Positions 23,720 through 34,547 of a stretch of DNA of 58,218 nucleotides are shown here, piece after piece. Source of the DNA: an uncultured Clostridia bacterium (GTDB taxonomy: Bacteria; Aerophobota; Aerophobia; Aerophobales; B3-G15); assembly GCA_964482715.1 (NCBI GenBank), contig CAYZYX010000006.1, positions 1-58,218 of the forward strand, given 5' to 3'. Each line of letters begins with the position of its first letter. Position 1 is the stretch's first letter. The translations under genes and the position numbers were made by a program. The notes under the pieces are model-generated. The model did not search any database. It had not been told where the DNA came from and saw nothing but the letters and a program-made list of their open reading frames with translations.

Positions 23720-23748
23720 TTGACATCTCTTCATGTACAATTTAAAAT
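23720..23748 (+). promoter_or_regulatory. sigma70 promoter of the paaI-hupUV-kinase-regulator operon
   Basis: TTGACA-17-TAAAAT. Confidence 0.8.
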
Positions 23749-23789: not shown

Positions 23790-24200
23790 ATGCAAAGAAC
23801 CGATCTAAAAACTTACAGGGAGAAACTGGCCCATGATCCCTATGCAAAGCTTCTTGGGGTGAAACTGGAAAAGGTGGAAGAAGGGTATGCCAGGGTAAGT
23901 CTTGAGTTGAAAGAGGAATTTTTAAATTTTCTGGGTTACGTTCATGGAGGACTTATCTTTTCCCTGGCTGATCAGGCTTTTGCAGTTGCCTCCAATTCCA
24001 GAGAGAAAGTCTCAGTTGCCCTCCAGATGAATATTAATTTCCTAAAGGCCCCCTCCATAGGTGACACTTTAATTGCCGAGGCTGAAGAAAAAAGTTTAAG
24101 CAATAAAATCGGATTTTATGAGATAAAAGTAAAAAATTCTGCTCAAGAACTTATAGCCCAGGCTCAGGGCATAGTATACCGGAAAGAACCAAGAGGATAG
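23790..24200 (+). CDS. PaaI/hotdog-fold thioesterase
   Basis: N.LG.VHGG.IFSLAD.AF..ASN motif. Confidence 0.9.
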   Translation: MQRTDLKTYREKLAHDPYAKLLGVKLEKVEEGYARVSLELKEEFLNFLGYVHGGLIFSLADQAFAVASNSREKVSVALQMNINFLKAPSIGDTLIAEAEEKSLSNKIGFYEIKVKNSAQELIAQAQGIVYRKEPRG

Positions 24201-24205
24201 AAAAG

Positions 24206-25225
24206 ATAAAAAAAAGAGGAGCTTCAAAGCTCAATGTTTTGTGGCTGCAGGGTGGATGTTGTGGAGGGGAAAGTGTATCTTTGTTGAACTCAGAGCAACC
24301 CGGTTTTCTCACCACCGTCACTAATTTCAACCTCAATCTTCTCTGGCATCCCTCTTTTAGCTTACAGGGAAACAGAGAGATACCCCAACTTCTTAATAAT
24401 CTTCTTACCGGAAAATTGAAATTACACATACTGATGGTAGAAGGTGCTATCTACCAGGGTCCTCGGGGAACCGGAAAGTACAACCTGTTCTGCGGGAGAC
24501 CTTTTAAAGATTGGGTTATCCAGCTTTCCAGAATTAGTGATTATACCATAGCTGTAGGAACCTGTTCTTCCTTTGGGGGTATTCCTGCTGCCGGAAAAAA
24601 TCCTATGGAAGCTACTGGACTTCAATTTTTCAGGGAAACTAAAGGAGGGCTGCTGGGAAAAAATTACACTTCGCGAAAGAAGTTCCCGGTGATTAATATT
24701 GCCGGTTGCCCGGCACATCCTGACTGGATAGTTGAAACCTTACTCAATTTATCTGAAAGCAAACTCCAACTGGCTGATCTGGATCGATTTAATCGTCCTC
24801 GCATGTTTTACGAAAAATTAGCTCATCATGCCTGTCCTCGCAACGAATACTACGAATTCAAAGCCTCAGCTGAGAGTTACTCCCAGCAAGGATGTCTATT
24901 TGAAAATCTGGGATGTAAGGGTACCCAGTGTGAATCTGATTGTAACGAAAGATTGTGGTTGAATCGGACTGGAAGTTGTACCCGAGGAGGTTTTCCCTGT
25001 ATATCCTGCACATCTCCCCGTTTTCCCGATGGATTTGTTCCCTTCTTTGAAACAGAAAAAATAGGTAACATACCTACCACCCTGCCTCTGGATGTTCCCA
25101 AAGCCTGGTATGTTGGGATAAGTGGACTGGCCAAACTTGCCTGTCCTGAACGACTACTTGTAAACGCCACCTCTTTTAAACCCGTAAAAATCGAGGAAAA
25201 TAGAGAAAAATGGAAAAAAAGTTAA
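24206..25225 (+). CDS. hupU: H2-sensing [NiFe]-hydrogenase small subunit (HupU/HoxB-like, group 2b); start uncertain (ATA 24206 or TTG 24239)
   Basis: No Tat leader; NVLWLQ..C, VGTC..FGG, GCPAHP, HHACPRNEYYEFKASA, and C-terminal IP..LP.DVPKAW tail typical of sensor small subunits. Confidence 0.85.
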   Translation: MKKRGASKLNVLWLQGGCCGGESVSLLNSEQPGFLTTVTNFNLNLLWHPSFSLQGNREIPQLLNNLLTGKLKLHILMVEGAIYQGPRGTGKYNLFCGRPFKDWVIQLSRISDYTIAVGTCSSFGGIPAAGKNPMEATGLQFFRETKGGLLGKNYTSRKKFPVINIAGCPAHPDWIVETLLNLSESKLQLADLDRFNRPRMFYEKLAHHACPRNEYYEFKASAESYSQQGCLFENLGCKGTQCESDCNERLWLNRTGSCTRGGFPCISCTSPRFPDGFVPFFETEKIGNIPTTLPLDVPKAWYVGISGLAKLACPERLLVNATSFKPVKIEENREKWKKS

Positions 25226-26670
25226 CCTTAAGACCTTTTTCTCGTCTGGAAGGAGACCTGGAAATTGAAGTCAGATTTAAAAAAGAGGAAATTGTAGATT
25301 GTTGTTGTTCGGGAATCATGTTCAGGGGATTTGAAAATCTTCTTACAGGAAGAGATTTGATGGATGCACTGGTATTTGTCTGTCGGATTTGCGGGGTATG
25401 CGGGGTCTCTCAATCAGTGGCTGCTGCTAAAGCACTGAGAAAAATCTTTGGGATAGATATTCCTGTCAATGGATACCTTGCCACCGGTATTGTTCTGGCT
25501 ACCGAGATACTTCTTAATCAATTTACCCACTTTTACATCTTATTTACACCAGACTTAGTAAATCCAAGATATTCGGGACATCCTTTATATCCGGAAGTGG
25601 TAAAAAGATTTTCTCCCTTTTCAGGTCTTTCCTATCGAAAGATGGTTGAAGCAAGAAAAGCTCTTTTAACTATCATGGGAATATTTGCCGGTAAATGGCC
25701 CAACACCCTTGCTCTGCATCCAGGTGGAACCACCAAACCAATAAATAAAAGTGAGAAGATAAGATGTATGGGAAGTTTAAAGGAATTTCAAGATTTTGTT
25801 GAAAGTGTTTTCCTGGGTTGTGAAATTGAGCAATGGTTAGAAAAAAGAAGCTTTGAAGAAATTGAGTTATGGTTAAAGAAAAAAGAGGCTGTGGAAAGTG
25901 ATCTTGGTATTTTTTTGTTATTTGGCAGAGAAATTGGATTACCTGAACTGGGAAAAGGTCCTGTTAGATTCTTATCCTCGGCCGGATTTGAGCTTCCAGA
26001 AGGAAAGAGCTGGTATAAGGAGGGATTCTATGACGGCAATCTCCACCCTCTTGATACCGGAAAGATCCGTGAAGATCATACATTTAGTTGGTTAGAAAAT
26101 GGAGAACATCATCCCTTTGAAGGATCAACCAGGCCAGATATAGACAAAAAAACCGCCTACAGCTGGTCAAAGTCTCCTCGTTATGAGGGGAAGGTGGTGG
26201 AGGTTGGTCCCCTGGCAAGGCTTGTAATCAATCAGGAACCCCTGGTCACTTCTCTTTTTTCCAGATGGGGGGCAAATGTATATACCAGAGTGCTTGCCCG
26301 GATGCAAGAGGCTATAAAGCTTATTCCCAGAATATCTTTCTGGATAGAACAGATTGACTGGGAGAAGCCTTTTTATCATAAACCGGACAAGGTGGTAAAT
26401 AAAAAAGCGAGGGCACTTGTAGAAGCAGCAAGAGGAATGCTTGGGCACTGGATAAAGGTTGAAAATGGTAAAATCAAAAATTACCAGATAATAACCCCCA
26501 CCACCTGGAATTTTTCTCCTCGTGACTCCTATGGCAATCCAGGAGCTTGTGAGCAGGCTCTTGTAGGAACTCGTTTAAAAAATCCTGAACAGCCACTTGA
26601 AATTTTTCATATTATAAGATCTTATGACCCTTGTCTTTTCTGCAGTGTGCATATGATAGAAGTAAGGTAG
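25210..26670 (+). CDS. hupV: H2-sensing [NiFe]-hydrogenase large subunit (HupV/HoxC-like)
   Basis: PFSRLEGDLE, L1 RICGVC, GKWP, PTTWNFSPRD, L2 DPCLFCSVH close to the C-terminus. Confidence 0.88.
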   Translation: MEKKLTLRPFSRLEGDLEIEVRFKKEEIVDCCCSGIMFRGFENLLTGRDLMDALVFVCRICGVCGVSQSVAAAKALRKIFGIDIPVNGYLATGIVLATEILLNQFTHFYILFTPDLVNPRYSGHPLYPEVVKRFSPFSGLSYRKMVEARKALLTIMGIFAGKWPNTLALHPGGTTKPINKSEKIRCMGSLKEFQDFVESVFLGCEIEQWLEKRSFEEIELWLKKKEAVESDLGIFLLFGREIGLPELGKGPVRFLSSAGFELPEGKSWYKEGFYDGNLHPLDTGKIREDHTFSWLENGEHHPFEGSTRPDIDKKTAYSWSKSPRYEGKVVEVGPLARLVINQEPLVTSLFSRWGANVYTRVLARMQEAIKLIPRISFWIEQIDWEKPFYHKPDKVVNKKARALVEAARGMLGHWIKVENGKIKNYQIITPTTWNFSPRDSYGNPGACEQALVGTRLKNPEQPLEIFHIIRSYDPCLFCSVHMIEVR

Positions 26671-26676
26671 GTAAAC

Positions 26677-27873
26677 ATGCGGCTGACAGATAAAAACTCT
26701 GATAAGCTTCAGGAAACTATGTGGATTGAGATAATTGAAGGAATGGAACATCTTTATGCGGAACTTGCGGATAATCAGGCAGAATTGGAGAGAAAAAACA
26801 GAGAACTTTCCCGGACTAAGGAATTTATTGAAAATGTGCTAAACAGCATGATCGATTCAGTAGTGGTTATAGATCGAAGTGGAATCATAAAGAGAGTTAA
26901 CAGAGCTACTTTAGAACTTCTTGGGTATAGTGAGAGGGAAATAGTGGGGAAAAAAATGAAGGTTTTGCTTGGGAGGAGAAAAAGCACTCTTCTGTTTAGG
27001 AATCATTTTCTTAAGCAACTTATAGAGGAGGGGTCTATTCATAACTTTGAAATGGATTATCGAACCAGGAAAGGTGAAAAAATCCCGATGAGCTTTAACG
27101 GGTCCCTGATGTTGAGTAAAGAAGGTGAAGTAGAAGGAATAATTGTGGTTGCCCGGGATATGAGGGAGATCAAAAATCTCCAAAATCAACTCGTTCACTC
27201 GGAAAAGTTAGCTTCTATTGGAAGACTGGCAGCCGGTATAGCTCATGAAATAAATAACCCTTTAACAGGAATTTTAACATTTGCCCATCTGCTCCTCAGA
27301 GATGTTCCTCCCGATGATCCTATTCATAAAGACCTGGAAATTATCGTTAAAGAAGCAAACCGGTGCAAATTAATCACTCAAGGCCTTCTGGATTTTGCCC
27401 GGCAAACTGAACCGCGGAGAGTTCCTGTTAATATAAATCGGCTTATAAAAGATACTGTAGCCTTAGTTAAGAATCAGGCATCTTTCCAAAATATAAAGAT
27501 AATTGAGGATTTAAATTTGGTCTTACCTCTGGTAATGGTAGACCCAAATCAAATCAAACAGGTGTTTATGAATATTATCCTTAATGCCCAAGAAGCCATG
27601 CCTCAAGGGGGTTTTTTAAGTATAAGTAGTGATTTTAGTGAGGATGGAAGATCTATAGAAATAAAATTTACAGATACAGGATGTGGAATTCCTGAAGAAC
27701 ATATGGGGAAAATATTTGACCCTTTCTTTACCACTAAAAAAACAGGAAAGGGGACAGGGCTGGGACTTGCTATAAGCTATGGACTTATTAAAAGACACAG
27801 AGGAAACATCGAGGTAGAAAGCCAGGAAAGAAAAGGAACTACAGTCATCATAAAATTGCCTGTGAAAGGATGA
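26677..27873 (+). CDS. Cytoplasmic PAS histidine kinase (HupT/HoxJ-like)
   Basis: N-terminal WIEII..ME.LY.EL..Q.ELE.KN.EL helix, PAS, AHEINNPL, DTGCGI, GTGLGL. Confidence 0.88.
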   Translation: MRLTDKNSDKLQETMWIEIIEGMEHLYAELADNQAELERKNRELSRTKEFIENVLNSMIDSVVVIDRSGIIKRVNRATLELLGYSEREIVGKKMKVLLGRRKSTLLFRNHFLKQLIEEGSIHNFEMDYRTRKGEKIPMSFNGSLMLSKEGEVEGIIVVARDMREIKNLQNQLVHSEKLASIGRLAAGIAHEINNPLTGILTFAHLLLRDVPPDDPIHKDLEIIVKEANRCKLITQGLLDFARQTEPRRVPVNINRLIKDTVALVKNQASFQNIKIIEDLNLVLPLVMVDPNQIKQVFMNIILNAQEAMPQGGFLSISSDFSEDGRSIEIKFTDTGCGIPEEHMGKIFDPFFTTKKTGKGTGLGLAISYGLIKRHRGNIEVESQERKGTTVIIKLPVKG

Positions 27874-27889
27874 AGTAAAGGAGAATCTC

Positions 27890-29299
27890 ATGGAAATAGG
27901 AAAAGTTCTGGTAGTAGATGATGAACCTGTGGTTTGCCAAAGTTGTAAGCGTATCCTGGAAAGAGCTGGATACAAAGTAGAGACAGTTTTAAGTGGTAAG
28001 GAGGCAATTAATAGAGCAAAAAAAGAAATTTACGATGTGGCTATAGTCGATCTTAAAATGCCCGAGATGGATGGAATGGAGATCCTACAAAGATTAAGAG
28101 AGGAACATCCAGAGATAATTGTTATAATGATTACCGGTTATTCTACCGTGGAAACAGCAGTGGAAGCCATGAAACTTGGTGCCTTTGATTATGTTCCCAA
28201 GCCATTTACACCTGATGAACTTGAAATAATAGTCAGAAATGCTCTGGAGCGAAAAAAACTTCTCTGGGAAAATCGATATTTAAGAAGCGAACTTCAAGAA
28301 AAATACCGATTTGAAAACATTATTGGTAAAAGCAAGAAAATGCAGGAAATATATCGAATTATAGAAAAAGTTGCTCCCACTGATTCTACGGTAATTATCT
28401 ATGGAGAAAGTGGAACGGGGAAAGAACTTGTGGCACGAGCAATTCACTACAATTCTCCTCGCAAGGATAGACCCTTTATCTCAGTTGACTGCGGAGCACT
28501 TTCCGAAAGTCTCCTGGAAAGTGAACTTTTTGGACATGTAAAAGGCTCCTTTACTGACGCAGTGGTTACCAAACCAGGGCTTTTTGAAATAGCCAATGGT
28601 GGGACTTTTTTTCTTGATGAGGTTGGTAATATCAGCCTTTCTATTCAGGCTAAACTCCTAAGGGTTCTCCAGGAACGTGAATTTAAACCTGTGGGAGGGA
28701 CGACCTGGAAAAAAGTTGATATCAGAATAATTGCCGCTACAAATAAAGACCTGCGAAAAATGATTGAAGAAGGAACTTTCAGGGAAGACCTTTTTTACCG
28801 GCTTAACATTGTGCCTGTTTATCTGCCTCCTTTAAGAGAAAGACGTGAGGATATCCCTCTTCTGGTATCGTACTTTCTGGAAAAGTTCAATCGGGAAAGA
28901 AAAAGAAATATAAAAAGAGTTTCTCTGGAGGCTATGCAACTTTTGATTAATTATTCCTGGCCTGGAAATGTAAGAGAACTGGAAAACATGATTGAGAGAC
29001 TGGTAGTAATGGCTGATGAAGACACCATACGAGTAGAACACCTGCCAATCAGTTTAAGAGAAAAGGAGATTCAGGCGGTAAAAGTTCCCAGGACCAAAGA
29101 AGAGTTAAAAAGATTAAAGAAAGAAGTAAGAAAAAAAGCGGTGGTTCAAATTGAGAAAAGGTTTATTCTTGAGGCTCTAAAAAGAAACAACTGGAACGTA
29201 ACCAAAGCAGCAAAAGATGTGGGTATGCAGCGACAAAATTTTCAAGCTTTAATGCGTAAGCACAAGATTTCCCGCCCAAACAAGAAAAATATTCACTGA
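27890..29299 (+). CDS. NtrC-family sigma54 response regulator (HupR/HoxA position)
   Basis: REC (VVDD, DLKMP), GESGTGKE, ESELFGH..GSFTDA, FREDLFYRL, WPGNVREL, Fis-type HTH. Confidence 0.93.
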   Translation: MEIGKVLVVDDEPVVCQSCKRILERAGYKVETVLSGKEAINRAKKEIYDVAIVDLKMPEMDGMEILQRLREEHPEIIVIMITGYSTVETAVEAMKLGAFDYVPKPFTPDELEIIVRNALERKKLLWENRYLRSELQEKYRFENIIGKSKKMQEIYRIIEKVAPTDSTVIIYGESGTGKELVARAIHYNSPRKDRPFISVDCGALSESLLESELFGHVKGSFTDAVVTKPGLFEIANGGTFFLDEVGNISLSIQAKLLRVLQEREFKPVGGTTWKKVDIRIIAATNKDLRKMIEEGTFREDLFYRLNIVPVYLPPLRERREDIPLLVSYFLEKFNRERKRNIKRVSLEAMQLLINYSWPGNVRELENMIERLVVMADEDTIRVEHLPISLREKEIQAVKVPRTKEELKRLKKEVRKKAVVQIEKRFILEALKRNNWNVTKAAKDVGMQRQNFQALMRKHKISRPNKKNIH

Positions 29300-29391
29300 A
29301 TATAAAAATTATTCAATAGCATTAATCCTTTCACGTTAAAAAGCAGAACCAACCTGAGTTTTTCTAAAATAATGAATAAATATTTTATGCA
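29297..29391. promoter_or_regulatory. Two palindromic candidate enhancer (UAS) sites TGAATA-N7-TAT(T/G)CA
   Basis: TGAATATAAAAATTATTCA (29297-315) and TGAATAAATATTTTATGCA (29373-391). Confidence 0.6.
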
Positions 29392-29451
29392 CTACATGGC
29401 AAAATAAAAGTAAAATCCCTTTGATAAAGCGAAAGAAGAAATCAGTAAAAC

Positions 29452-29466
29452 TGGCATGATGATTGC
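29452..29466 (+). promoter_or_regulatory. sigma54 -24/-12 promoter
   Basis: TGGCATGATGATTGC matches TGGCAC-N5-TTGC with exact GG-N10-GC spacing. Confidence 0.85.
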
Positions 29467-29502
29467 CCTTTTTCCTACAGAAATCATACTTTAAATTAAA
29501 AG

Positions 29503-29883
29503 ATGGAGACAAAGGGTAAAGTTCTAATAGCTGATCAGGATAGGGAAAGCAGAGAAACTTTAGCTGACTTTCTTTTGAGAGAAAATTTCTCAGTGGATAC
29601 TACATCTGTAGCCAGTGAAGTGATCCAGAAAATTCAGAATGTCAAGATTGATGTATTGATAATGGACGTAGAACTTAAAGGAATGAAGGGATATGAGATA
29701 ATCCCCATCCTGAAGAAAATAGACCCTCAGCTTTGTATAATTGTCACTTCGGGTAATCTCTCACTGGAGCTTGCTCGAAAAATATGGGAACAAGGTATAT
29801 TTTTTTATGCGGTGAAACCTCTTGATTTAAAAGAAATAAGACTGGCAGTTAATGACGCTCTAAAAAAACTCACCAAAAAATAA
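29503..29883 (+). CDS. Single-domain response regulator receiver
   Basis: VLIADQD, LIMD, KP motif; no output domain. Confidence 0.85.
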   Translation: METKGKVLIADQDRESRETLADFLLRENFSVDTTSVASEVIQKIQNVKIDVLIMDVELKGMKGYEIIPILKKIDPQLCIIVTSGNLSLELARKIWEQGIFFYAVKPLDLKEIRLAVNDALKKLTKK

Positions 29884-29893
29884 GGAGGAGGCG

Positions 29894-31855
29894 ATGGAAT
29901 CATTTGTACTTTTCTATCCCATAGTGATATGTTTTGTAGCTGGATTTTTGTGCCTTGTAATTCCTAAAAAAGGAGTAGGAGAAGGAATAACCCTTGGTGT
30001 TAGCGGAGTACTTATGATCATAGCTTCATATCTTTTTGTAATTTCCAGAAAATCACCTGTTTACTGGACCAGGAACTGGATTCCTTGGGTGGGTGTAGAT
30101 TTTTCTTTAAGGTGTTTTCCTCTTTCTTCTATGATGGTTCTCTTTGTCTCTTTATTTGCCCTTCTTATATCTGTTTACTCTTTAAGATTTATGTGGAAAA
30201 ATCCAAAATCAAGAGGTTTTTATACCATCCTTTTGTGGATTCTCGGAGCTTCCTGGGGTGTTGTTTTGACCAATAATCTTTTTGTTTTTCTCCTTTTTTG
30301 GGGAGGACTGGCAATTCTTCTTTATGCCTTCCTCACTCTTGGATCTTATACTCTTGCTACCAAAGGTATTTTTACCATAGGCGTTGCCGACTTTGCCCTT
30401 ATCTTAGGGACTTTATTTTTATATAAGCTTTCTGGCACTTTAAATATGGATAGCATCTCCAAGATAACCCTATATGGAACTTTACCTGTTGCTACTTTTC
30501 TCCTTTTGTCAACCGGAGCAATAGCCAAGATAGGGGCTGTACCTTTTCATACCTGGATTCCTGAAGCTTCAGAGAAAATACCGCCACCTGCTATGGCCTT
30601 TCTGGTGGGTGCTCTGGATAAGCTGGTTGGCATATACTTTTTAGCACGTGTATGTGTTGATTTCTTTGATTTCAGTGCATTTTCTGTTGGTCCAACTGTA
30701 TTAATGATATTGGGTAGTTTCACCATTGTGATTTCAGTAATGATGGCATTAGTCAGTTCTAATATGAAAAGGATCATCGCCTATTTCAGTATCTCGGCTG
30801 CAGGCTACATGATGATAGGTATGGCTTCTAAAAATCCTGTAGGAATGGCTGGAGCAATTTTCTATCTTTTAAGTACCACTTTGTGGACAAGTTTGCTTTT
30901 CTTGGTCGCCGGAGCGGTAGAAAGGCAAACAGGAACCAGTGAGCTTTCTTCGCTCGGTGGCCTTTCGCGCTGGATGCCACTTACATTTACTGGATGTCTT
31001 ATCGGAGGGCTTTCTATCTCTGGTGTACCTCCCTTAAATGGATTTTTCTCTAAATGGATGATTTATCAGGGAGTAATTGAGTTAAATATGGCGGGGGGAA
31101 AACTCTGGATTATATGGCTTATGGCTTGTATGTTTGGAAGTGTGATTACCCTGGCCAGTTTTATCCGTATGATGCATTCCGTTTTTCTGGGAGAAATAAG
31201 CATTATGGAAAAAATGGAAGTTGCAGAAAAATCTACGGCCTATACATCTCCCAATCCCGGCAGAAAAGTAAGTGAAGTACCTATGGAGATGAGTTTACCT
31301 ATTCTTATCCTGGCAGCTCTATGTGTTGGATTTGGTATTTTTGCTTATGACCTACCCCTGAAATTATTCATATTTTCTTCGCTTCCCGCGTTACCTGCAC
31401 CTTATCAATGGATAGGATGGTGGCAACCTGGACTGGCAACTATCTTGATAATCATTGGCATAATAATCGGGCTCCTGGTTTATCTTTTGAGCAGAGTGAA
31501 AAGGGTGCGGAGAGATATATCTTATATTGGAGGAGAAAATCCCCGTGAAGATATGAGTATAAGTGGTGTGGAGTTTTACGATACTATTACCAATTTCCTG
31601 GGTATTCGCCGGTTATATCGTGCCTCTCAGAAAGGTCTTATGGATATCTATGCAGGAATGTTGAATTTTGCCAGAGGGATTGCCCTTTTCCTTTTTGCGG
31701 TGGATAGAATTCTGGATTATACCTGGAGAGGTCTTGCCTGCATAGTTTTACTGGCAGGTAAAGGGGCAAGTCTGGTTCATGGTGGGATTCTACATACTTA
31801 CCTGGGATGGTTTCTTGTGGGGCTGACCATTTTACTTATTGTATTTTTACTATGA
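29894..31855 (+). CDS. Mrp/NuoL/HyfB-like proton-conducting membrane subunit
   Basis: Many TM helices; KIGAVPFHTWIPEA, SISGVPPLNGFFSKWMIY. Confidence 0.9.
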   Translation: MESFVLFYPIVICFVAGFLCLVIPKKGVGEGITLGVSGVLMIIASYLFVISRKSPVYWTRNWIPWVGVDFSLRCFPLSSMMVLFVSLFALLISVYSLRFMWKNPKSRGFYTILLWILGASWGVVLTNNLFVFLLFWGGLAILLYAFLTLGSYTLATKGIFTIGVADFALILGTLFLYKLSGTLNMDSISKITLYGTLPVATFLLLSTGAIAKIGAVPFHTWIPEASEKIPPPAMAFLVGALDKLVGIYFLARVCVDFFDFSAFSVGPTVLMILGSFTIVISVMMALVSSNMKRIIAYFSISAAGYMMIGMASKNPVGMAGAIFYLLSTTLWTSLLFLVAGAVERQTGTSELSSLGGLSRWMPLTFTGCLIGGLSISGVPPLNGFFSKWMIYQGVIELNMAGGKLWIIWLMACMFGSVITLASFIRMMHSVFLGEISIMEKMEVAEKSTAYTSPNPGRKVSEVPMEMSLPILILAALCVGFGIFAYDLPLKLFIFSSLPALPAPYQWIGWWQPGLATILIIIGIIIGLLVYLLSRVKRVRRDISYIGGENPREDMSISGVEFYDTITNFLGIRRLYRASQKGLMDIYAGMLNFARGIALFLFAVDRILDYTWRGLACIVLLAGKGASLVHGGILHTYLGWFLVGLTILLIVFLL

Positions 31856-32142
31856 GAGAAAAAAACAGAAATTTTAATTTTGAAGGGAATACCAAAATTG
31901 TAGAATATGTAAGTTCCGGAGCAATTATAGGGGCAATAGGTTTCACTATTTTTGCTGGACTTATAACTGACGCCAAAACCACATTTTTGATGAATTATTC
32001 CCCTCTCCTTGGAGGATTAATAGGAGGCTTTGTCTCATTTATTCTAAATCTTGCCAGTAGATTAATAAAAGGAAAAAAGAAAGATTTGAAAAGAAAAAGT
32101 GAAAAGATAAAAAGACCTCTGAAAGAGAAGGTTCGGCTCTAA
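31852..32142 (+). CDS. 96-aa two-TM hypothetical protein
   Basis: ATGA overlap with the upstream stop; Gly-rich TM helices and basic tail. Confidence 0.6.
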   Translation: MREKNRNFNFEGNTKIVEYVSSGAIIGAIGFTIFAGLITDAKTTFLMNYSPLLGGLIGGFVSFILNLASRLIKGKKKDLKRKSEKIKRPLKEKVRL

Positions 32143-32371
32143 ACACCAGCGACATACTCCTTGGTTTATATCTTGCCCTGCAGGCTTCCAGGTATCTCAG
32201 GGTTAAAGGCGAGATTTCTTCCCCCGGTAGCATTCCCTTTGCTCACTTTTGCCGGGAGCCTTCATTTTTGAGAATAGAAGACTTCCAGGGTATTCTCGGG
32301 AAAGCTTCTTTTGATGAAAAGCATACTTTTACATTATTTACAAATAAGATATATTATAAAATAAAAAAACC

Positions 32372-32890
32372 ATGGGGGTGAGAAAGATGAAAACATGGGT
32401 GATGGGAATAGCTTTTATGAGTATAATAATGGTGTTTATCTCTTCTTTTTCTTCAGCTGAGGAAACCCAAGGTCCTCTGAGTTTGACCATAAGCCTGGAT
32501 AAGGAAGAATACCAGATGGGTGAGCCAATAGAATGCACCTTAGTGTTAGGAAACATCAGCGAACAATCATTAACGGTAAATAAGAGACTCCTGGTGAACT
32601 ACGATGTCACTTTTCCTCATGAAGTTCTTTTTGAAATAAAAGGACCCGACAATAAACCATTAGAATTTATCCCCATAATTAAAGCAGGTCTTCCCGAAGT
32701 TGAAGATTTTATCTCCCTCTTACCCAGGGAGTTCATTATGAAGATCTACCAATTAGAGCGTTATTTTTCTTTCAGTAAAAAAGGAAAATACACTGTTCAG
32801 GCTATTTACGAAAATTATCATCAACCTTCGGATTTGAAAGTTTGGACAGGAAGTATAAAATCAAATATAGTTGAAATTAAAGTAAGATAA
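32372..32890 (+). CDS. Secreted beta-sandwich (Ig-like) hypothetical protein
   Basis: Signal peptide; L.L.ISLDK.EY..GEPI...L.N and GKY.VQAIY...SN.VEIKV pattern. Confidence 0.7.
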   Translation: MGVRKMKTWVMGIAFMSIIMVFISSFSSAEETQGPLSLTISLDKEEYQMGEPIECTLVLGNISEQSLTVNKRLLVNYDVTFPHEVLFEIKGPDNKPLEFIPIIKAGLPEVEDFISLLPREFIMKIYQLERYFSFSKKGKYTVQAIYENYHQPSDLKVWTGSIKSNIVEIKVR

Positions 32891-32911
32891 AAATTTCAGA
32901 GAGGGGAAATC

Positions 32912-34216
32912 ATGAAAAAAATATTTTTCATACTAATTGCTGTTTTTTTAGTGTTCCTTTTCATTCCTGGCTCAGGAGCTTCGGCTCAGCCTCCTCCGGC
33001 CAATAAAGTGGCGAAAATCCAGGAAGCTATAAATAAGGCAAAAGCTCTAAAAACCAAGGCCGATAAGATCTACCAACAAGCTCTCAACGAAACGGTAAAG
33101 AAATTTGGTGATGAATATGCTAAAGCTAAGACTGATGCCGAAAGAAGAAAGGTGGTTGATCAGGCCAGAAAATTTTTCCAGCAAAGACTGCGTACCCTGG
33201 GCTGGGGCAGGGCAAAAAAGGCTAAAGATGAGGCTTTTCAAAGGATAATTCAAGAGGTAAATAAAACCTATAAGATTGACACCAGAAATGTCAGAGGTGA
33301 GCCTACCTTCAGTCAGGATGTAGAAGGCGAAGGTGAATGCTATCCCGATGGAACAGTTAGAATTGGACCATCGGCTTTTACCTCTCCTGGAGTGGTAGCC
33401 TCTACCAAAAAACATGAAGCAACTCATGCTGATCAAGCTGCTGGAGGTAGATGGCCGAGAGGGGCTGTGGAACGCCATGATGCTGAGATTGAAGCTTATG
33501 GAAAAGAAATGACAAGTGCTGACACCGTAGGCCTTACCGATGCAGAAAGAAACGAGGTTCTCACCAGGCTTCGCTATCATTTAGCACAGAAAAAGGTGGC
33601 TCTTATAAATGAAATACGATCAGCAAAGACTTCAATGAATAATGATAAACAACGAAAAGAGCTGGATAAAATTGTGGAAAAGGTGCGCCAGATTCAAAAA
33701 ATGGAACAAAAAGGTGACGAAGAAAAGGCTATGCAGAAGAAAAACGAAGCGATAAAGGAGATTAAGCAGCTTATAAAAGGGGCAAAAGGCCGGGCTAAAA
33801 ATACATTAGAAAGGCTGAGAGATCACTTTGAAGGACTTAAGGAGGCAGAGCTTTTTGTTATGAAGGTGGAGGCAATTGAAAATTTGAGAGATGCTCAGGA
33901 TGCTCCAACTACCGGTAAGAAGCAAAAAAAGGAAATTAATAAGATTATAGGTAAATTAAAAAAGTTAATCGAGGCTCAGAGAAAAGGAAAAGAGAAAGAA
34001 GCTCTCAAGATAAAAAAAGATGCTTTTGAGGAGATAAATGAGCTATTAAAAAGGAGTAAAGGGTCAACAAAAGAGGAGCTGAATAAAGCAAAACAGAAAA
34101 TAGAAAAACTGATAAAAATTCAAACTACACTTGTTGGTAAGATTTATATTCCGAGATTCAGAATCTGGATTGGCTATCTTTATACAATACCCTATTTGAA
34201 AAAAGCAAATGAAAAC
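32912..34216 (+). CDS. Secreted HEXXH zincin-like protein with helical repeats (truncated by assembly gap)
   Basis: Signal peptide, HEATH plus downstream EIEAY, two ~91-aa K/E-rich repeats; open into the Ns. Confidence 0.75.
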
Positions 34217-34316
34217 NNNNNNNNNNNNNNNNNNNNNNNNNNNNNNNNNNNNNNNNNNNNNNNNNNNNNNNNNNNNNNNNNNNNNNNNNNNNNNNNNNNN
34301 NNNNNNNNNNNNNNNN

Positions 34317-34547
34317 GGAGAACTGGCAGAAGGGAAGGGTAGGGGTAGTGGTTATAAAACATCCTTAGGCGTAGAGTTTAATTTGTCCCGGAACCTTTCT
34401 CTTTTTATTGAAGGAGGATACCGAAACTTATTGGTTACAGCAAAAGGAGACTTATCCTACATGGGGACAGAAGATAGCGAAAAAGAAGAAATCGAACTTG
34501 ATTATAGTGGAACAGAGATAAAGGTAGGTTTATCAGGAAGATTTTAA
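34317..34547 (+). CDS. C-terminal outer-membrane beta-barrel fragment (probably the end of the preceding CDS)
   Basis: Alternating beta strands LGVEFN, LSLFIEGGY, IKVGLSGRF-stop with terminal Phe. Confidence 0.65.
   Translation, partial: GELAEGKGRGSGYKTSLGVEFNLSRNLSLFIEGGYRNLLVTAKGDLSYMGTEDSEKEEIELDYSGTEIKVGLSGRF

Follow-up and report, generated by a model that had tools for sequence, protein, structure and literature searches.

A HoxBC-HoxJ-HoxA-type cascade in an uncultured Aerophobetes-like anaerobe and the possible hydrogen-controlled exchange of a pump subunit in a membrane hydrogenase

Results

Layout of the locus

We analyzed a 58,218-nucleotide stretch of DNA (the window), which is contig C6 of the genome of an uncultured anaerobe (G000; 1.565 Mb, 54 contigs, 94.7% complete). 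Between positions 23790 and 32142 the window carries, on the forward strand, a sensor operon and, behind it, a target operon. The sensor operon encodes a PaaI-like protein, the small and large subunits of a [NiFe] hydrogenase, a histidine kinase and an activator of sigma54-dependent transcription. The target operon, which begins with a candidate sigma54 promoter, encodes a receiver, an antiporter-like membrane subunit and a small membrane protein. Gene assignments were based on open reading frame (ORF) calling and family scans (Pfam, NCBIfam), and every gene that an earlier reading of the sequence (the original prediction) had listed for this region was confirmed at its place. Our comparisons suggest that the hydrogen level decides which version of the antiporter-like subunit is made.

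Sensor hydrogenase, kinase and activator

The four sensor proteins were compared with those of the Cupriavidus necator pHG1 hox region. The HoxB/HupU-like small subunit (24239..25225, 328 residues) is 50% identical to HoxB over 329 residues. Its translation begins directly at WLQ, and it therefore has no Tat leader; its C-terminal tail aligns with the HoxB tail of the regulatory hydrogenase (RH) type, and it keeps the fourth Cys of the medial cluster. The HoxC/HupV-like large subunit (25210..26670, 486 residues) is 40% identical to HoxC over essentially its full length and ends only five residues after DPCxxCxxH. Its Gln68 aligns with the HoxC Gln, at an RH-specific position where other hydrogenases have His; Gln at this L1-motif position is named as an RH hallmark in PMC5665086. 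The soluble PAS-HisKA-HATPase kinase (26677..27873) is 29% identical to HoxJ along residues 3-396, so that the alignment includes the N-terminal helix, as had been proposed from its resemblance to HupT and HoxJ. The NtrC-type activator (27890..29299; REC-AAA-HTH_8) is 38% identical to HoxA over essentially its full length. The original prediction of a HoxBC/HoxJ/HoxA-like cascade is thus supported by matches of all four proteins over essentially their whole length. A family scan of the window found no partner for electron delivery encoded nearby. These features show a sensor-type [NiFe] hydrogenase, predicted to be cytoplasmic, in one operon with a PAS kinase and a sigma54 activator.

Among solved structures, the best match of the large subunit was the group 2a enzyme Huc (308 bits), with group 1 enzymes at about 220 bits. 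The best plasmid matches were of the HoxC/HupV type (39-41% identity, versus 35-36% for the 2a type). A quick tree of 67 large-subunit rows with SH-aLRT support, which included three group 2a references and five group 1 rows, placed the window protein in a clade of 56 rows (SH-aLRT 99). The proteobacterial histidine kinase (HK)-linked HoxC clade was nested inside this clade, and the 2a and group 1 rows fell outside it. A position outside group 2b had been named in advance as speaking against a sensor; in this tree the protein shares one clade with HoxC. According to a table in PMC5037454, HydDB defines group 2b as histidine kinase-linked and group 2c as diguanylate cyclase-linked. By this functional definition the window sensor belongs to 2b, because the HoxJ-like kinase gene starts 7 bases after the large-subunit gene. 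The kinase gene also directly follows the large subunit in seven of the eight non-proteobacterial loci of the clade that have context. NCBI labels as Candidatus Aerophobetes a protein identical to the large subunit from genome G003 (same family, different genus), in agreement with the proposed non-proteobacterial anaerobe.

The proximal cluster of the small subunit departs from the RH pattern. PMC5665086 describes RH as having a narrow gas channel and three [4Fe-4S] clusters, of which the proximal and the medial one have four Cys ligands each. The window protein has CCGGE in place of CxxC, so that Glu stands for the second proximal Cys. Asp, Glu or Ser occupies this position in 9 of the 12 non-proteobacterial rows printed; of the other three, L018 has another motif, L039 keeps Cys, and L045 is out of register, though its sequence reads GCGGDT. 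The substitution is seen in the non-proteobacterial HK-linked sensors L104, L105, L106, L107, L019, L027 and L057 and in the window (24239-24290), and proteobacterial sensors keep GCGGC. The alignment suggests that non-proteobacterial HK-linked sensors may have a proximal cluster with a non-Cys ligand.

Control region between the operons

The activator and receiver genes are separated by a 203-bp spacer. The inverted repeat at 29297-29391 is real and resolves into two palindromes, both candidate activator sites: TGAATA-N7-TATTCA at 29297..29315, which overlaps the activator stop codon, and TGAATA-N7-TATGCA at 29373..29391. The relaxed pattern TGMAT-N9-ATKCA has five matches in the 1.565-Mb genome, two of them in this spacer. 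Of the three other matches, on contigs C7, C17 and C31, the two that were inspected (C17 and C31) lie inside ORFs and were rejected as further activator targets.

A -24/-12 element, TGGCAT-N5-TTGCC (TGGCATGATGATTGC at 29452-29466), lies on the forward strand at 29452..29467 and is the only match in the window. The expected number was 0.13 and at least one match occurred in 13 of 100 shuffles, so the element is weak on its own. The corresponding position is also occupied by a sigma54 element in G003, in the metagenome contig L140, and in G011 and G019, two genomes of a sister family. The strict pattern matched 19 times genome-wide, with no match on contig C2. The claim that a sigma54 promoter precedes the receiver, antiporter-like and small membrane protein genes and may drive them was upheld as to layout and recurrence in relatives. 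A contig of the independent run X3 spans 28114-31060; the junction of the two operons is thus no assembly artefact. Contigs of two independent runs (X3 and X6) have an extra T at position 29468, right after the -12 element; the -24/-12 spacing is the same.

The genome encodes four true sigma54 activators and two sigma54-like genes, at C16:6806-7951 (381 residues) and C12:4815-5933 (372 residues), of which only the C-terminal part matches the models. The candidate -24/-12 element, the palindromes and an AAA+/HTH activator are present. The activator and its G003 orthologue carry GSFTDA in place of the usual GAFTGA loop of HoxA. A lack of rpoN or hyp genes had been put forward as a reason to abandon the cascade; hypD, hypF and the sigma54-like genes are all present in the genome. 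Immediately before the sensor operon of genome G017 stands a 272-residue ORF (L104:6865-7683) that encodes a sigma54 DNA-binding domain.

Target operon

The receiver-only protein (29503..29883) is 63% identical to the G003 receiver and keeps D55 and K105. It is an orthologue of the first REC domain in the protein that heads a sigma54 operon in G011 and G019 (41 and 39% identity, respectively). The next gene (29894..31855) encodes a 653-residue antiporter-like subunit (PF00361, 155 bits), which we assign to a variant class ("class B") and whose best solved match is MbhH. It is a paralogue of the 640-residue antiporter-like subunit of a group 4 hydrogenase encoded on contig C2 of the same genome, to which it is 52% identical over 640 residues, including the C-terminal 150. 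A reading as a DabAB-type or other two-gene transporter was dropped, as there is no DabA-like partner and the protein is a close paralogue of a hydrogenase subunit.

The last gene (31852..32142) encodes a small two-helix membrane protein of 96 residues, 48% identical to its G003 homologue. The ORF is open from 31807; ATG 31852 is the more likely start because it overlaps the stop of the 653-residue gene and agrees with the G003 homologue. The family scans assigned no Pfam or NCBIfam family to this protein, and no similarity was seen between it and the MbhD/E-like subunit encoded just after the standard copy of the group 4 operon. It was found convincingly in G000 and G003 only, that is, solely alongside a sensor-linked variant. 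A complex prediction for the variant and the small protein scored 0.00, which carries no weight for or against binding.

Conservation in related genomes

In G003, one contig ends with the small subunit, the large subunit, the kinase and the start of the activator. Another contig begins with the remainder of the activator, followed by a palindrome, TGGCATAAAAATTGC, a 132-residue receiver, a 659-residue variant and an 81-residue small protein. The layout of G000 is thus matched at about 60% identity in a different genus. Metagenome contig L140 shows a palindrome, TGGCACAAAAATTGC, a receiver and a variant. The proposed conserved sigma54 operon of receiver, antiporter-like subunit and small membrane protein accordingly recurs in G003, and in L140 as far as the variant.

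G011 and G019 carry the same cascade. Behind it come, in order, a terminator, TGGTATAAAAATTGC and the genes of a REC-REC protein, a hybrid kinase and a group 3b hydrogenase; on its other flank, the group 4 operon points away from it. Since the same head leads the variant operon in G000, G003 and L140 or the 3b operon in G011 and G019, the combination of promoter and receiver is old, with a cargo that varies. Between the sensor and group 4 operons of G011, the spacer (L107:12440-12680) contains a GC-rich hairpin-like repeat in two copies.

Standard and variant classes of the antiporter-like subunit

A homologue of the antiporter-like subunit was found in 18 of 41 related genomes, with two copies in G000 and G003 only. 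An alignment of 15 copies fell into two classes. The standard class has SYHAISQVGYM in the region of transmembrane helix (TM) 8 and FHMxN(N/H)AIYK in that of TM11, and the variant class has AY(F/L)xIxAAGYM and FYLL(S/N)T(T/A)xWT; here and below the helix numbers are presumed ones. In the window variant, Phe and Ala replace the TM8 His and Gln, and Tyr, Thr and Thr replace the TM11 His, His/Asn and Lys. Gly stands in place of the TM5 Glu, as it does in the standard copy, and both classes lack this Glu. The Lys residues of TM7 and TM12 are kept. The variant belongs to the PF00361 fold family, although it lacks the full conserved set of lateral-axis charges of antiporter-like subunits. Its Thr332 aligns with the conserved Lys of MbhH, MrpD, MrpA and NuoL; among 80 metagenome loci, this position is Lys in 75, Thr in 4 (one being the window's own sequence) and Glu in 1.

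The variant class, which is rare, forms one clade (100/99). It takes in the sensor-linked copies of G000 and G003 together with those of G023 and G029, two related genomes in which the gene fills the usual position of a group 4 operon. The sensor-linked copies are on long branches (0.52 and 0.43). At L141:26-2582, a variant-class gene is preceded by an IS200-like Y1 transposase gene; this gene may be a recombinant, as its N-terminal part appears standard-like by eye.

Other hydrogenases of the genome and neighboring features

The original prediction had noted no group 1 hydrogenase, hyp gene or endopeptidase in the window. Apart from the sensor, the window is indeed free of hydrogenase and hyp genes, but the genome has them elsewhere. 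Contig C2 carries an 18-gene group 4 hydrogenase operon with HycI, adjoining hypD and hypF, which we call Mbh/Hun-type, an assignment made apart from the Hun definition (e.g. the CYCC motif). Its genes encode AsrA/AsrB-like, NuoH/B/C/D-like, antiporter-like and Mrp-type subunits, and its catalytic subunit is closest to MbhL (296 bits). The promoter region of this operon (C2:24675-24840) has two TTGTGA-N-TCACAA Rex-type palindromes over sigma70-like hexamers. The same contig encodes a second hydrogenase (C2:65300-69350; L005:8322-12348) with a Tat-less small subunit (290 residues) and a large subunit (519 residues) closest to periplasmic [NiFeSe]/group 1a enzymes (457 bits). CbiMNQO-type transporter genes lie upstream of it and MetV/MetF-like genes directly downstream. 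In the upstream regions of the group 4 operon and this hydrogenase, only sigma70-type and Rex-like elements were found.

Upstream of the sensor operon, a sigma70-type promoter-like site (TTGACA-17-TAAAAT; 23720..23748, forward strand) agrees with the consensus at 11 of 12 positions, as a consensus match only, and has a divergent twin at 23648-23620 on the minus strand. The first gene of the operon (23790..24200) encodes a PaaI-like hotdog thioesterase (PF03061; TIGR02286 at 114.4 bits against a cut-off of 118.9). It was rejected as a conserved part of the system, as it is absent beside the sensor in G003, G011, G019 and G017. Downstream of the small membrane protein, positions 32372-34342 contain two ORFs of 172 and 476 residues with signal-peptide-like N-termini, to which the scans assigned no Pfam or NCBIfam family. 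The second is Lys/Glu-rich and broken by a run of N near 34200. The pair has its own sigma70-like site at 32328 and is not kept after the small protein in G003.

Discussion

A HoxBC-HoxJ-HoxA-type cascade in an Aerophobetes-like anaerobe could bring about the hydrogen-controlled exchange of a pump subunit in a membrane hydrogenase, a proposal for and against which we see the case as evenly balanced. The sensor hydrogenase would report H2 to the kinase, which would set the phosphorylation state of the activator in one direction or the other; for C. necator, PMC10073562 gives the unphosphorylated activator as the active form. The activator would bind the palindromes at 29297-29391 and open the sigma54 promoter at 29452, which would drive the receiver, the variant antiporter-like paralogue and the small membrane protein. 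The variant would then take the slot of the standard subunit in the group 4 complex. Because the variant lacks the His, Gln, His and Lys of the lateral hydrophilic axis, a complex that contains it should translocate fewer or different ions per H2; the coupling ratio would then suit the smaller span of free energy at high H2. As a more tentative extension, which we think possible but doubtful, the paralogue with an uncharged lateral path would replace the proton-conducting subunit as a "gear shift" set by H2 partial pressure, keeping the enzyme workable in either direction when H2 rises. In a bolder form, by analogy with NdhF3, the uncharged channel could conduct gas together with the small protein.

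The cascade had been thought to act on an ion module rather than a hydrogenase. This part of the original prediction was not supported: the 653-residue protein is a paralogue of the organism's own group 4 subunit, the variant class occurs within the group 4 operon in G023 and G029, and the same cascade heads a 3b operon in G011 and G019. For these reasons the output of the cascade still appears hydrogenase-related. The output had also been called undescribed for this sensor class. It remains of an undescribed kind, but it would be one alternative subunit of a hydrogenase and not a whole enzyme. Our literature search on non-proteobacterial HK-linked [NiFe] sensors and on alternative antiporter-like subunits of hydrogenases, with Greening et al. 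2016 and supplements outside its scope, turned up no account of such an arrangement, in which an alternative hydrogenase subunit would be driven by an H2 sensor.

Several observations weigh against subunit exchange under hydrogen control, and some of them bear on the sensor itself. Besides the CCGGE motif, the large subunit has Val63 and Leu111 where HoxC has Ile and Phe, which we take to be the bulky pair that narrows the RH gas channel. Gln at the RH position occurs in only three rows among 41 aligned homologues (the window protein, P0002 and P0017), and most close homologues carry His. The large-subunit tree was a quick one, with no references for groups 2c, 2d and 2e. The two sigma54-like genes are divergent, at 126 and 98 bits against an NCBIfam cut-off of 277. 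The group 4 operon has sigma70-type and Rex-like elements and no sigma54 site, so co-regulation of the standard and variant copies is not visible. The variant seems to be the sole copy on which G023 and G029 live and so is more than a defective subunit. With the TM5 Glu missing from the standard copy too, neither of the two is a textbook pump. A change in ion/H2 stoichiometry is pure inference.

The departures in the sensor could mean that the hydrogenase-like pair is a low-activity catalytic enzyme or a redox sensor of something else. The altered proximal motif, the standard Val/Leu pair and the catalytic-type His of most clade members would fit such a role, and we found no study of any member of the non-proteobacterial clade in the literature. 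We nevertheless consider it the least probable of the alternatives, since the genes are tightly packed with those of a HoxJ-like kinase and a HoxA-like activator, the position of the kinase is kept in seven of the eight non-proteobacterial clade loci with context, the RH-type tail, medial-cluster Cys and Gln are present, and no electron-delivery partner is encoded nearby.

If hydrogen is sensed, the target operon could be something other than a source of an exchange subunit, and two such alternatives seem to us about equally improbable. The receiver, antiporter-like subunit and small protein might form a free-standing ion-translocating or ion-sensing module, switched by H2 and unconnected to the hydrogenase. 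The three genes do make up a separate operon at a distance from the group 4 genes, the small protein accompanies only the sensor-linked copy and lacks an equivalent among the group 4 genes, and the long branches of the sensor-linked copies would be expected after a change of job. The 52% identity to the operon subunit nevertheless extends over the whole length, and the nearest clade-mates, in G023 and G029, are ordinary members of group 4 operons. We know of no antiporter-like subunit, in Mrp or complex I, that works alone, which also counts against such a module. The same long branches might instead mark a redundant duplicate, left after loss of a 3b cargo, so that the cascade senses H2 and drives the operon with no functional exchange; the same promoter and receiver head the 3b operon in the sister family, and G000, at 94.7% completeness, yielded no group 3b large subunit. 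The reading frame is intact, however, the arrangement is kept in two genera and one further contig at 55-60% identity, and the dedicated small protein is conserved alongside the variant. The substitutions that define the class also occur in the in-operon copies of another family and so are old and maintained, which argues against redundancy.

The proposed exchange cascade resembles the HoxBC-HoxJ-HoxA system of C. necator and the HupUV-HupT-HupR system of Rhodobacter in its four proteins, which can be aligned at full length with HoxB, HoxC, HoxJ and HoxA. The window sensor shares with RH a Tat-less small subunit with a tail, the medial Cys, the L1-motif Gln, a large subunit that has hardly any C-terminal extension, a sigma54 activator and membership of one tree clade. 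It differs in the Glu at the second proximal Cys and in Val/Leu for the HoxC Ile/Phe. The gene order in the window is small subunit, large subunit, kinase and activator, whereas proteobacterial RH loci have activator, kinase, small subunit and large subunit. The neighboring target differs as well: in place of an uptake hydrogenase operon, the window has a receiver with one alternative membrane subunit.

By analogy, the nearest precedent for the proposed subunit exchange is cyanobacterial NDH-1MS (NdhD3/NdhF3/CupA/CupS). PMC6981117 describes inducible isoforms of antiporter-like subunits in this complex-I-type enzyme, together with small accessory proteins, and NdhF3 as having non-polar residues in place of the charged residues of the lateral proton channel. 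The window variant likewise loses lateral His and Lys residues and is accompanied by a small protein. The two differ in the enzyme (here a group 4 hydrogenase), the signal (H2 versus CO2) and the regulator (here a two-component system with sigma54), and the window has no CupA-like catalytic add-on. The exchange has been shown structurally for NDH-1MS, and we infer it for the window variant. Among group 4 hydrogenases of the Mrp-Mbh/Hun kind (Pyrococcus furiosus Mbh, PDB 6CFW; Hun, Glass et al., bioRxiv 10.1101/536078), the C2 operon is alike in subunit set, with its catalytic subunit closest to MbhL. The window differs in holding a single such subunit, outside the operon and behind a putative sigma54 promoter, with changed axis residues.

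To our knowledge, work on H2 sensors of the RH class has been confined to aerobic Proteobacteria, in which these sensors turn on whole uptake hydrogenases. The cascade described here, from an uncultured sediment anaerobe, appears to have as its target just one alternative subunit of an energy-converting hydrogenase. The comparisons also point to a clade of sensor hydrogenases in which a non-Cys ligand may serve the proximal cluster, and the four sensor genes, the 250-bp promoter region and the defined output could make a compact set of parts for anaerobe-compatible H2 reporters. If the proposed exchange is true, this would be the first respiratory-type complex to adjust its ion-coupling module to the concentration of its own gas substrate or product, and it would bear on how organisms at the thermodynamic limit handle changing H2.

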